In this document: piece by piece, positions 124 to 18,276 of the stretch
How positions within the stretch are numbered: position 1 is the first letter of the stretch
How the letters are laid out: each line of letters begins with the position of its first letter
Assembly: GCA_023645945.1 (NCBI GenBank)
Contig: JALAIB010000048.1
Span: 1 to 41,312, forward strand
Source: Diploschistes diacapsis
Taxonomy: Eukaryota
Direction of reading: 5' to 3'
Length of the DNA stretch: 41,312 nt
Notes under the pieces: model-generated
Seen by the model: the letters and a program-made list of their open reading frames with translations, nothing else
Databases searched by the model: none
Told to the model about the DNA's origin: nothing
Program-made: the position numbers and the translations under genes

Positions 124-2960
124 TTATGTAGGGTTGGTAACGACGTCCTCGTACTCTCTCGAGACTATCACGTCCAAAGTCCTCTGAAAGTGCCGCTTGG
201 GGCCTTCTAGCGACGCGCTCTCCTGGTTGGTTTGAAGGTTCGAATGTATAAGCTCGATGAGACCGTTGAGATATTTGACAGTGACCTGCGTGTAGATTAG
301 CAACGCGGCGCAAGATGTGTGTTAAGAGCACCTACCTGCTCGTTTTGCTGATCAAAGTAATATACGTATCGGTTCAGGATCTCGACGAAAAGCTCGACCG
401 ACACTGCGGAGTCCATGCAAGCATCTGCTACCCGCAAAGCCCTCTGCAGGCACTCAAGCACGCGCTTGCCGTCTCGGTATAGCTAGACCAAAGTCAGCAA
501 CATTGTTCCATCTTGAGGGGTTCCTCCCTTACGTCTTTCGAATCCTCTTCACCCCTTGCTCGAATATCTGTTGCCCACCACAAGTGACTAGCCAAGTACA
601 CTGCTCTGCATTGGTCGGGCTTCTTTAGTAGCTTGCTCCCATGAAGGGCGCATTTGGTAATCAGGGTATCGTAATTCTCTCGCGTGAACCCCCTAGTCTG
701 GTGCAATGCCCCTGCCAGCACACAAACAGCCTGGAACTGGGCTCTCGAATCGCTAATGGACTCCTCGTAGATTGTGAACGCCTGCGCAAAGAACTCGTAT
801 GCTACCTCTTCGAAGCCCGTCTGGTCGGCTATCTGGCCACAAGCAACGAACAACCGTAGGCAAAGTTCTGCAGCACCATTGACGCGGGTATATAGAGTTG
901 TTATCGAGCTATGCATGAACTTGTACAAGGCCGACGATTGAGATTGCCAGCCGTCCTCATAGTGCTCCCTTTTCTTGTAGCTCCTTGCAAGCTTTATCGA
1001 CAATGTAAGTAGAGCAGGCGTTGTGTACTTTATCCGTTCGTTGCCGTCCGCAAAGGCCTTCTTTGCCGCTTGCAGAAGCTTAAATTGGGTATCATTATCT
1101 GCTCCCTTAACAAGATGAACTATCCTGGCGAGCCATCCTTGTTCCTCTATGGTCTCATCGGTCTCGGCGTTTCGCCTTTGACTTGCGATACCTGGGTAGC
1201 CAGCAGGCTGTTGCGACCCCTCCCGAATCAATACACGTAGTATTTCAAGCACGCCCTCCAAGTTTTCGGTGGTTGATATAGCTGTCTGGTTCCGTAAAAG
1301 ACTCCTCGCAACCTCTCCAGCAACGGCGCGACGGGTGGGATATGTTTGCGCGTGAAGTAGTGGTACATAATGCGGAAGAGCAAGGGCGGTGAACAAGGAA
1401 AGGTAAGATTTAATGGGTGCTAAAAGAAGGCCAAGAATGTTCGACTGCGCTGGCTGTGAGTGGAGATCCGCACTATTTGCATATTGGTTCACTTTCTCGT
1501 TGGCGTAGGCGAGAACTTGATCGAGATAGTCCAGCCTATCTGGATAAATGTTGAGGGCAAGGTTTGCCAGTGACATCAAAAGCGCGATTGTGTCCTGTAT
1601 CGGCAATCTCTGGGCTTGCACAAGATGTATGACCTGGCCGTAGAATATCTCGTAAAGCTTGATGTGCGCGGGGATGCCTTGTGCCTTCTTCTCCGTTGCA
1701 CTGTCTTCTGTTTCAACATTATAGGGTTCCGAATTTTGTGTCTCTTTTGCCAAATCTCTCTGATCGGCTGGTTCAGTGCTTCGTTGTGTGTTCTCCGGCA
1801 ACTGTCCATTTACTTGCTCACTGTCTTGCTTGGGGGCTTTAGCACGGGCAGCTTGGGCTTCTCTGGAAATTCGGAGCTTATCAAGCAGCGCCACTACAGC
1901 ATCCTCTTCGGACTGCTTTCTCTGTCCAGGAGACAGCGGGACGGCCTCGTTTTGAGCGTACGATGATAACCTGTTCATCAACCCAATAACAATAGCCTTG
2001 ATGTTGACGTGAGGATTCAATCGCGCAATGGCTGGGAGGAGCTGATCGAGGGTATTGAGGTGAAATTCATCCGGAAATACTTGTGTAATGACTTATAGAG
2101 GGGTTAGTAGAACCAAAGGGAGTCAAAACTAGCATACCTTCGAGTAGGTACTCCTGAGCAAGAACGTCCCTACACTGGACGACTTGCTCTAAGAGGGGCT
2201 CTAATATCGTGTTCTTATACGTCTGGAGGTCCACTAGTTGACTGAGGCGTACCAAGTTATTTCCGACCAGCAACTGGAGTTCCTGGCGCTCTTTTGTCCT
2301 CTGCTCCCTCTCACGAGAGTGGCCTTGATGCTGCAAGCGAACCCAAAGCTTATTCATCTCAACGAAGTTCGTCAGAATGAAGCTAATAGAGTCCGAAATG
2401 TTCCCTTCCGGCCCGTCTCCCGTGCCTGTTGGTAAGAAGTCGCGTGCCTGGCCTGATAGGTAGTATCTCAGGAAGAGTCCTCTTATAGGATGCTGGATGC
2501 CTCTGCTCATCTCCATCATGTCCTTCATTATCTCCTTAACCGGCGCATCCTCGATACCCATGTAAATTGTGCCAACAGCGACCATGAGGTAAAGACGAGG
2601 GACGATGTTGCCTGCATACTGCACAAGTTCGTAGAGATCGGCGAGGTGATGTTCTGGGTGCGCTTCACGTATATGAACACCTAGGATCCTCAAGGCATCG
2701 AATACAGCCATGTAGAGCTCATAGTACTGCTTAGGGCCCAAAGTCGAAGCTCGAAGCTCGGCGCATAGCGAAGACCTGCTGGATTCAGCTCAGGTTTCTA
2801 TTATAGGAATCACGAAATCGTACGCGCATTTCAGAGCGTCCATAAGCTTCCCAGGAGTATCAAGACACCTCCGCATCTGGCTCGTATGCATGCGTACTGA
2901 GCCAAGTGCATTCTCGAGCAGCACCCCCTGGTCCTCGATTGCCTGTGGTGGTGCTGCCAT
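124..2960 (-). CDS. VPS35: Retromer cargo-recognition subunit Vps35 (5 exons: 2960-2824, 2775-2138, 2091-533, 482-336, 285-124)
   Basis: Spliced translation gives [11 protein letters not shown]...[101 protein letters not shown]. Four GT-AG introns of 46-50 nt keep the frame; TAA at 124-126. Confidence 0.97.
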
Positions 2961-15532: not shown

Positions 15533-17304
15533 ATTGAGGTCAGATCGATATGAAGGTTCCGTGATTCAACGGTGGCAAAATACATCGCTTTTAAGATACG
15601 TGTAAGCTATAGGATAGCTGTTGCCTCTTTCCATTCTTGTAGTGTCACGCTCATTGATTGCGCAGTGCAGAATGCAGGCTCTGCTACCTCCGTGAACGCA
15701 CTATAATCAATGTTAGGCTAAGTTCTTCGAGGGAACGTTGGCGCTTAGGATTGCAGAAGCTGGCTTGGTAGTAACCTTTGGTCGTAAGAGGTATAAGGCA
15801 TTTTGTGAGTGCCTCCGCTACATATGTAAAATACACCGTGGCGCGGTGGGAATAGTTATACTTTTCTTTTACAACAGTAGTCGCTACAGTACATAGCTTA
15901 ACCTGAAAGTTATTAAGGCCTTTCAAACCAACTCTACGAATAACCACCTTGAGGAATATATATCATCGTACTCTATTCCATAACATCGGAGCACAAGGAT
16001 CCTGTGTCCAGACGGGACAGCCAAAGCTATAGAACTTGGTCCGTGAGGCCCGCAGGCAAGGAGCTCCAGTCTAGTTGAATGAATCGCGAGAACATTAACC
16101 ACTCAACTTCTATAACAGATAGCGCAAACCTGGAGATGAATCAATAGCATTGAAATGAAACATAAACGACTAGATGCGAAACCAACAAGGGGAAAAGACC
16201 TACCGAGCAGAGGCAGTGTAAATCCGCCTGACCCTGACCCGATCTGAATCTCCTAGCCTTTATGGACAGGGTCAGTTTCGTTCACGATATCTTGCAGGAA
16301 GGCGTCCGTCCACGAAAAGGTATAGCCTTGCCAATTCCTTTTGGCAGCATTTCTATAACAAAGATGCAACTGTCATTATCCACCACCGAACAGCCAGAAC
16401 GCGGTCAGTTATTGGCTTCTCGGGAGGCTGCAGACTTCGTGTGGTTCTTATCGTACTGGCAAAGTTAACAAGCTCTGTGACTGTGCGAAATCCGTCGATG
16501 ATTTTAATCATCTCGGGAATACTTCGCTCATCCCACCCGAACAAGATGAGATTAGACCGACAATAGGTATTCCTAAGTCGGTACTCCGGGTGAAATTGCG
16601 CAAGAGATGAGATATAACAGACTCCTTAGCGTCGGAAGCTCGAATCCCTGACCTTCTAGACCAGAGAAATGAATGAGATATGAGGAGGGATCTCTCCACA
16701 AGTAAACAGAACTGCAGCTCCACGGCGAACCTCAAGCTAGGAGCTATATTGGTAATTTCCATTCTCATAGAGCTTTACGACGCAATAAAAACTGAAGAAT
16801 GATACCGACGACAGACAGGCTGGGACGCCTTAGATCTTGGATCTCTGACTTCCGGCATCTCAATGGCTCCCCAATGTAGTCGGAGTTAGATAGTTGAAGT
16901 CCGAGGGAAAAATAGCAGAGCCGGAGTCAGGTCCGAGGAAAGGGAAGCATCAAATCTATAGATATCTACTGAAGAAAAAGTAGAAATTATCTACGAAAGA
17001 CATCTACTGCATCTTGCTGCACGCGTACTTTGACTCGAGGGAGTGCGTATCATGCAGGCAATTCCAATGTCTAGCTCGGCACCCCGTACTATTTCGCTCT
17101 TCATCGGGTTCGTGTGTCGCTGGTTTCGTTTCTTTTCCAAAGCGTCGAGACTCCGAGCGTTCTGACTGCGGATCAGCGTATAGTATATAAGCCAAAAGAT
17201 GCCATACCTTGGTGCTCGTACGAGATGCGTCTGTTGTGCCACCTTCAGCTATTGCCCTAACAGTTCCTGGCCTTGGTGGCGATAAGGAGCACCCATGAAA
17301 GGCC

Positions 17305-17310
17305 AAAAAA
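17305..17310 (-). terminator. RNA polymerase III terminator (T6)
   Basis: TTTTTT on the minus strand 4 nt after the tRNA discriminator base. Confidence 0.75.
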
Positions 17311-17314
17311 TTAA

Positions 17315-17435
17315 TGGAAGAATTGGGTATCGAACCCAAGACCTCTCGCATGCAAAGCGAGCGCTCTACCACTACTGCACATCAGAATTGAAATCTAGGC
17401 AAACCTTTACTGAACCTTACCTGAGCTATACTCCC
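17315..17435 (-). tRNA. tRNA-Ala(UGC) interrupted by a 49-nt D-loop intron (exon 1 17435-17421, exon 2 17371-17315)
   Basis: Joined exons give 72 nt: GGGAGTA TA GCTC AGTGGTA GAGC G CTCGC TTTGCAT GCGAG AGGTC TTGGG TTCGATA CCCAA TTCTTCC A. Perfect D, anticodon and T stems, G3:U70 Ala determinant, discriminator A, anticodon TGC at 17352-17354. Confidence 0.95.
17372..17420 (-). other. Spliceosomal-type (GT-AG) intron inside the tRNA D-loop
   Basis: Sequence GTAAGGTTCAGTAAAGGTTTGCCTAGATTTCAATTCTGATGTGCAGTAG: CAG|GTAAGG donor, CTGAT branch motif, YAG acceptor. Exact removal restores the D-loop AGTGGTA. Confidence 0.85.
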
Positions 17436-18276
17436 ACTTATCCAAAGAATGGTCCCTAAAGAATCTATATGTGTGATTCAATATAAGCTATTCAGCGTGT
17501 TTGGAGGTGTTTTTTTATTCACCATTGTTCTCGTAGAGCAAGTGGTAAGCCGGCACATCTTTTTTGTTTCTGTTTCATGCACCAACTTGGCCGTGAATGC
17601 CCCGTTACTTCCTTAATCCCTCTAATCCCTCTGAAATATACCACTTCTATGCACTAACCCCCAACGAGGTCTTTTCACCGCCTTAGATTTGGAATGATCT
17701 TCCAGTTGCCGAAAGGAACTTTTAAAATCCTTCAGTTGACTCCGCCACCTAGCCACTGACTTGAGGGCATTTGCGCAGTCATCTTCCGAGCTTCCCGGAC
17801 CCTAGACTAGAGTAGAGAATAGACTAGACTAGAGTACGTTGTACGAAGGCTAGCAAGTTCTGGGGGAGATCTGTGCCCTGTCTCAATTTCGCACGCTCGC
17901 AACGGTCAAAGAATCAGGATGCTGTGGTCATGCTCTCTTCTCTGTGGCATATCTAGCTAGATGAGGGAATTAACTTATCTGTGTGAACAGATCCTATCCT
18001 CAAGCGCCATTCAGCCTTGGGAACTTAGGACCCTTTCCCCCTCCCCGCTTTGAAGCTTCATGACATCCTCGATGGCCATCGTGTGTGTGTGGTTAATGCA
18101 ATCAACCCATTGTCTTATTTAGTCGGCGCCACCTCTCGCACTTTCAGTCATTCGCATACCTCATCATCAGCAACACAGTCTAGCTATTATATAGCCAAAG
18201 CTGTTCAGTCGTCGCATCCATCAAAGTGTCTTCTACCCGCAGTATCCTATCTCCATCCACCGCATCGCATATCACG

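Follow-up and report, generated by a model that had tools for sequence, protein, structure and literature searches.

Structure of the split tRNA gene

The window, by which we mean the whole stretch of 41,312 nucleotides that was analysed, is filamentous ascomycete DNA from a lichen sample, and Pfam matched HET, DUF7730, VPS35 and listerin in it. A tRNA-Ala(UGC) gene lies in two parts on its minus strand. Exon 1 (17421-17435, minus strand; tRNA nucleotides 1-15) holds the 5' strand of the acceptor stem, U8-A9, the 5' strand of the D-stem, and A14 and G15, and its 3' end is CAG. It is followed by an insert of spliceosomal type (17372-17420, minus strand; 49 nt), which carries a donor, a branch-like sequence and a tandem acceptor and in which the longest T run is 3. 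Exon 2 (17315-17371, minus strand; nucleotides 16-73, 57 nt including the discriminator A) comprises the remainder of the D-loop with G18 and G19, the TGC anticodon arm, the variable loop, the T arm with the B box, and the 3' strand of the acceptor stem with U70, followed by the discriminator A. A T6 run (17305-17310, minus strand) is found 5 nt 3' of the discriminator. It resembles a Pol III terminator, the presumed role in which the initial annotation had named it. Upstream, the TATA-like element ATATAG (17465-17470, minus strand) occupies -35 to -30 from tRNA position 1 and may serve as a promoter element. The insert interrupts the A box, of which the first 8 nt are kept. The initial annotation had the coordinates of the gene right and left out its strand.

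When the insert was removed in silico (17420-17372), ARAGORN called a tRNA-Ala(tgc) of 72 nt with G3:U70, in agreement with the proposal that 49 nt split the tRNA between nucleotides 15 and 16. The D-loop and T-loop of the excised form are normal, with the B box and all the usual invariant positions in place. The features expected of a tRNA-Ala cloverleaf (anticodon UGC, G3:U70, and the invariant residues of the D- and T-loops) were all found in this form. There is one mismatch, U6.U67. The cloverleaf had been described as flawless; its length, G3:U70 and B box stand, and the adjective is slightly too strong because of this mismatch. In the untouched whole window, ARAGORN reported no tRNA at this locus or elsewhere, and Rfam at the gathering score found nothing. 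With relaxed thresholds, the Rfam tRNA model scored 26.4 bits against a cut-off of 29 and aligned only exon 2 plus some insert bases. The locus was missed by both programs, as would follow from the suggestion that standard tRNA finders could overlook such genes.

Splice signals, acceptor choice and chance

The 5' site GTAAGG (17420-17415) stands directly after the CAG that ends exon 1. A branch-like CTGAT (17385-17381), in the context TTCTGAT, places the branch A at 17382, 10 nt from the insert end. The U1-type donor, CTRAY branch and YAG acceptor described previously are all present, and there is a complication absent from that description: the acceptor is tandem, with CAG (17377-17375) and then TAG (17374-17372), 3 nt apart. 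Splicing to the upstream CAG, just 7 nt from the branch A, would add 3 nucleotides to the D-loop and put four nucleotides between G15 and G18, which is one above the normal tRNA limit. ARAGORN accepts the 46-nt excision as well as the 49-nt one, and only the latter gives a D-loop of canonical size; it is for this excision that the claimed restoration of the D-loop by removal at GT..AG holds. TAG was chosen as the probable acceptor because of the D-loop geometry and the branch distance. Because exon and insert both end in AG, three placements of the cuts give an identical product, and one of them is GT..AG. Excision of GT..AG segments followed by ARAGORN is too lenient a finder to set boundaries, as 14 different excisions were accepted at this locus. 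If both tandem acceptors were in use, two forms of the tRNA differing by 3 D-loop nucleotides would arise.

The frequency of such signals by chance was estimated from the window. The set that was scored (GT start, G at +5, YAG end, and CTRAY 7-22 nt from the end) occurs in full in 4 of 82,526 49-mers, both strands and real introns included, or approximately 5e-5. Among 23,470 GT..AG excisions of 35-110 nt across the window, a tRNA was restored at this locus only. With three control pairs of ends, a tRNA was restored in 0/30,101, 0/23,098 and 0/28,825 excisions.

The mRNA introns of the window were used as a yardstick. A first, stricter intron heuristic gave 2 candidates; the relaxed version, a rough scan that joins open reading frames, gave 54 candidates of 43-90 nt, many of which are noise. 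The plausible ones measure 46-86 nt, with 10-17 nt from branch to end. Both the length of the tRNA insert (49 nt) and its branch distance (10 nt) are inside the ranges of these candidates, and the match in size with the mRNA introns of the window that had been pointed out is thereby upheld. A candidate intron of the VPS35 gene (532-483) begins with GTAAGG, the same hexamer as the tRNA insert, and an additional VPS35 intron of 45 nt was read by hand. Another VPS35 intron (2092-2137, minus strand; 46 nt) has a perfect TACTAAC branch and, from the reading frames on either side, apparently ends in AAG, not YAG.

The same locus in other samples

Five DNA sequencing runs were found, three of which (X1, X2 and X3) cover the stretch wholly or partly and were compared over 16600-18100. 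X1, the best match and possibly the source of the window, is labelled as a lichen metagenome; X2 represents a relative that is approximately 6% diverged at the locus; X3 is a rock metagenome. In X2, a 629-nt contig (contig 11) spans 17279-17498 with 14 mismatches in 220 nt. None of the 72 exon positions is changed. Two of the 49 insert positions are changed, at 17403 and 17389 (intron positions 18 and 32), and both are outside the donor, branch and acceptor. The flanks have 8 listed mismatches in 99 nt, and 4 unlisted ones are probably near the ends of the aligned piece (8-12 in total). Fisher's test of the exons against the flanks gave p = 0.02 with the listed changes only and p = 0.001 with all. 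When the regional divergence of X2 (approximately 3.4%) was taken instead of the local flank rate, the probability of zero exon changes was approximately 0.08, so the exon constraint is modest. The upstream element reads ATATAT in X2, compared with ATATAG in the window. Judging from these alignments, the unchanged tRNA sits in an intergenic region that evolves fast. Upstream of the gene, X2 skips 105 nt of the window at 17498-17604 and has 114 other letters in their place; near 17802 it lacks 22 nt.

At the tRNA, the depth in both X1 and X2 is that of the single contig that bears the insert, and no contig breaks where exon and insert meet. Neither a near-identical intronless copy nor a further copy of the insert was seen in these two runs, in which contigs drop rare variants and some conserved records were filtered. 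This hints that the gene may have no intronless twin in either sample. The possibility of a repeat or introner copy was rejected, since no other X1 or X2 contig matched the insert or the exons. The X3 contigs are of low depth and lie outside the insert; one of them is an Ala-like tRNA without an intron, which has 5 mismatches over 47 nt and comes from some member of that community.

A second tRNA-Ala(UGC) gene with a D-loop insert

The pattern used to scan public collections consisted of the two halves of the D-arm with GT, 30-60 free bases and AG between them. It matched 45 loci: 28 in metagenome contigs, 17 in contigs of prokaryote genomes and 0 in viral contigs. Of the 48 candidate excisions from these loci, only the one at L008 and the four at L037 restore a tRNA by ARAGORN. 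The remaining loci are chance matches or other things, where excision restored no tRNA; L003 and L015, for example, are ordinary tRNA-Val genes with a chance match upstream.

L008 was examined over 864 nt; the contig to which it belongs measures 94.6 kb. Its tRNA-Ala(UGC) has G3:U70, and both the acceptor stem and the cloverleaf are perfect. An insert of 47 nt (L008:407-453) sits at 15/16; it begins with GTTCGT, has CTAAT 11 nt from its end, and closes with CAG. Its donor has T at +3. A TATA-rich stretch is found upstream at a distance similar to that of the window element, and a T11 run comes after the gene. The 15/16 site that the organisms have in common is imposed by the search pattern, which in L008 also forces the GT and the AG; the remaining signals of L008 are found in 2 of 312 GT..AG 47-mers of the window. 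The mature tRNAs of the window and L008 are identical at 57/72 positions. Among the 21 stem pairs, 6 are changed on both sides and 0 on one side only, which is compensatory. The inserts and flanks could not be aligned, and nothing outside the exons is common to the two loci. Such covariation is what two functional tRNAs would show after a long divergence. Together with the X2 locus (0/72 exon changes and 2 changes in the intron interior), an unalignable insert at the same site fits the predicted pattern of conserved exons and splice signals around a variable intron interior. L008 also carries a 7-nt insert (L008:475-481) at the canonical 37/38 site of the anticodon loop. With this insert besides that of the D-loop, the gene would need two kinds of splicing.

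A tRNA cluster with inserts in Arg and Leu genes

The four other positive sites are on L076, the whole 8.2-kb contig around L037 (G001:C138), which is labelled as part of a gammaproteobacterial MAG. Its GC content is 65%, and its UXS-like and SCO1-like coding pieces are apparently split by introns (translations, judged by eye). We infer that it is a mis-binned eukaryotic contig, possibly from a green alga. A dense tRNA cluster occupies L076:1504-2714. Four of its genes are tRNA-Arg(CCG), all of them interrupted at 15/16 by a GT..AG insert (63, 54, 48 and 54 nt). In addition, tRNA-Leu(UAA) is present twice, and in both copies an insert of 45 nt, of the form GTGAGT..CACTGAC..CAG, separates T-loop positions 59 and 60. 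The Leu insert is an unbiased example because its ends were not imposed by the search. In Arg copies 1 and 3, the exons are identical and the rest of the tandem unit is nearly so, and the inserts (63 vs 48 nt) hardly align.

Spacers of 5-26 nt, free of T runs, separate the tRNA genes of L076, and T6 occurs in the first Arg insert. The tight spacing without T runs and the T6 in an insert argue for a long precursor in this organism, perhaps made by another polymerase. Seven other small contigs of G001 were inspected and gave no convincing split tRNA; six have ordinary intact tRNAs, and L078 had no ARAGORN call. Both ARAGORN and Rfam missed the split genes of the window, L008 and L076, so genome annotations may list as missing some tRNAs that are actually present.

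Proposed removal of the insert

We believe, with a probability of roughly 0.65, that the window locus is a functional nuclear gene for tRNA-Ala(UGC) whose D-loop contains a U2-type (GT-AG) intron at 15/16. The gene anatomy and the signals are directly observed, the insert is kept in a relative, and like inserts are present in tRNA genes of two other organisms. From these data we infer transcription by Pol III, use of the TAG acceptor and excision by the spliceosome. The gene would form a short transcription unit, most likely of Pol III, in which the B box is intact, TATA-like sequence lies at -30 and T6 is the terminator; T runs of at most 3 in the insert are compatible with such a unit. U1 would pair with the donor (CAG followed by GTAAGG) and U2 with the branch-like TTCTGAT, and the acceptor would be TAG, 10 nt after the branch A. 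Ligation of the exons would then give a 7-nt D-loop with G18 and G19, and the usual end-processing would follow. The likely origin is an intron that was reverse-spliced into an abundant tRNA at an exposed CAG of the D-loop, followed by reverse transcription and recombination. The same route was proposed for U6 introns in part of a review (PMC5855946).

Several features speak against this reading. The A box is split by the insert. As a 5' exon, exon 1 and the leader would be very short and have no cap. The acceptor is a tandem, and use of its CAG would lengthen the D-loop as described above. A weak arrangement resembling a bulge-helix-bulge (BHB) is possible in the window insert, and the L008 donor has T at +3. 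The T6 in one L076 insert would stop Pol III.

A rival explanation is that the spliceosome removes the insert from a Pol II transcript, either a host non-coding RNA or a polycistronic precursor, from which RNase P and RNase Z release the tRNA with no part for Pol III. The close packing of the L076 genes without T runs, the T6 in one of their inserts, and an A box that is split in every case would all fit such a transcript, and part of one paper describes an Arabidopsis tRNA-like RNA that is made from a Pol II transcript (PMC6152437). However, the window gene and L008 have the layout of stand-alone Pol III genes, with TATA-like sequence near -30, an intact B box, T6 or T11 directly 3', and insert T runs of no more than 3. 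For the window locus, we consider release from a Pol II transcript unlikely.

Another explanation is a non-canonical tRNA intron whose removal would be the work of the tRNA splicing endonuclease and tRNA ligase, with GT..AG being incidental. The inserts were compared with a BHB template of two 3-nt bulges with the cut sites, a 4-bp helix between them and flanking helices. In the window pre-tRNA, 9 of the 12 template positions can pair, including 3/4 in the central helix. This is weakly suggestive, with an expectation by chance of approximately 1-3%. The initial annotation saw no BHB; no conserved one was found here. The 7-nt insert at 37/38 shows the endonuclease pathway in use on the L008 gene, and other lineages are known to have ectopic introns in the D-loop and the T-loop (PMC3978253). 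On the other side, the central helix is incomplete throughout: 3/4 in the window, 2/4 in L008 (5/12 overall) and 0-2/4 in the six L076 inserts. Cleavage by the endonuclease also gives no reason for the recurrence, in inserts that cannot be aligned, of a donor, a branch and an acceptor spaced as in spliceosomal introns. That the spliceosomal signals are conserved and the BHB is not counts against an endonuclease-type intron, which we regard as quite improbable here.

It is also quite unlikely, in our estimation, that the locus is a tRNA gene, dead or decaying, into which something was inserted by chance, or else that it derives from a tRNA and has another role (a TFIIIC site, for example), in either case with no excision at all. 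The split A box, the U6.U67 mismatch and the rejection of the locus by standard finders are what one would see in such a gene, and the P of approximately 0.08 at regional divergence leaves the X2 exon conservation compatible with it. Against this are the chance frequency of the insert signals (on the order of 5e-5), the unchanged X2 exons beside 8-12 changes in 99 nt of flanks, and L008, where a perfect cloverleaf and six compensatory pair changes accompany an insert at the same site. Nor is the locus a repeat, given that the other X1 and X2 contigs have neither the insert nor the exons. A group I or group II self-splicing intron, which has a conserved catalytic core and usually exceeds 200 nt, was rejected for an insert of 49 nt with no Rfam intron family at gathering score in the window or at E up to 10 in 17200-17550, and a canonical TSEN intron was rejected for an insert at 15/16 and not 37/38.

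Relation to known introns

A spliceosomal intron in the window gene would most resemble known cases in other non-coding RNAs. As in fungal U6 (the single U6 gene of S. pombe), a short non-coding RNA gene is interrupted by a GT-AG intron that has canonical signals and is otherwise unconserved in sequence. The S. pombe U6 intron is removed by the spliceosome, according to the review cited above for the origin route (PMC5855946). U6 is a Pol III transcript. Unlike U6, the host here is a tRNA, which has no role in the spliceosome's active site, and the 5' exon is only 15 nt. Because a tRNA is outside the active site, the argument from proximity for reverse splicing is weaker than for U6. As in the rDNA of lichen and other ascomycetes, introns of spliceosomal type would occur in lichen fungi in a gene that is probably not transcribed by Pol II. 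One study reports that yeast excised a spliceosomal intron of lichen rDNA from Pol I transcripts (PMC8527467). There, unlike here, rRNA is the host, and the word tRNA has 0 occurrences in that paper.

Among tRNA introns, the ectopic ones of Cyanidioschyzon merolae, nucleomorphs and archaea likewise interrupt the tRNA outside 37/38, the D- and T-loops included, and introns outside 37/38 are missed by standard finders, as noted in part of PMC3978253. Those introns have a BHB at their junctions, whereas the inserts described here have spliceosomal signals instead and an unconserved BHB. With canonical TSEN introns at 37/38, the window gene shares a nuclear pre-tRNA that must lose an internal piece, and L008 has an insert of that kind as well; the position at 15/16 and the recognition signals are different. 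The two systems, tRNA introns and spliceosomal introns, are treated in reviews as separate, with separate enzymes (in parts of PMC12530127 and in section 8.1 of PMC13149111), and the intron types as unrelated, in part of a 2025 paper (PMC12530127).

In the literature searched, the coverage of which leaves out most subscription journals, no paper was found that describes a tRNA gene with a spliceosomal intron, which accords with the earlier statement that no established case in tRNA was known. The hosts of spliceosomal introns listed in part of one review are U6, U2, U5, U1 and rRNA, and tRNA is absent from that list (PMC5855946). We rate ectopic spliceosomal introns as already known in U6 and rRNA, and a tRNA host as one that would be new. 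If the proposed intron is real, tRNA would join this short list of non-mRNA hosts. A tRNA that requires the spliceosome would link translation capacity to splicing capacity. The gene would also be a test case for the origin of such introns, and for the action of the spliceosome on a very short 5' exon in a probably uncapped Pol III transcript.

The best reading of the three sets of genes is that the window gene would be one of a larger group of tRNA genes, as yet undescribed, that have introns of this kind. More tentatively, and at slightly less than even odds, spliceosome-dependent maturation of tRNA may be recurrent and overlooked in the nuclear genomes of distant eukaryotes (ascomycetes and a GC-rich, alga-like organism). 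Such genomes would have GT-AG introns in the D- or T-loop of tRNA genes, sometimes together with an endonuclease-type intron. In some of them the split gene would be the only one for an anticodon, so that decoding would depend on the spliceosome and tRNA finders would report an incomplete tRNA set.

Other split or tRNA-like elements

Two further stretches of L076 were noted. L076:1929-2030 resembles permuted tRNA halves, in which a T-arm piece comes before a D-arm and anticodon piece with CAT; a brute-force test for permuted tRNAs on L076 returned thousands of lenient matches. L076:2558-2714 looks like a tRNA with an interruption of 80-90 nt in the anticodon region. Among the loci of the collection scan, L009, L011, L012, L013 and L020 share a conserved element, in which a part resembling tRNA-Val(CAC) from the D-arm to the 3' end is preceded 5' by approximately 47 conserved bases. 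The element is without a recognisable 5' acceptor strand, and ARAGORN called no tRNA in it. Possibly it is a structure resembling a tRNA, or else a split gene of some other kind.
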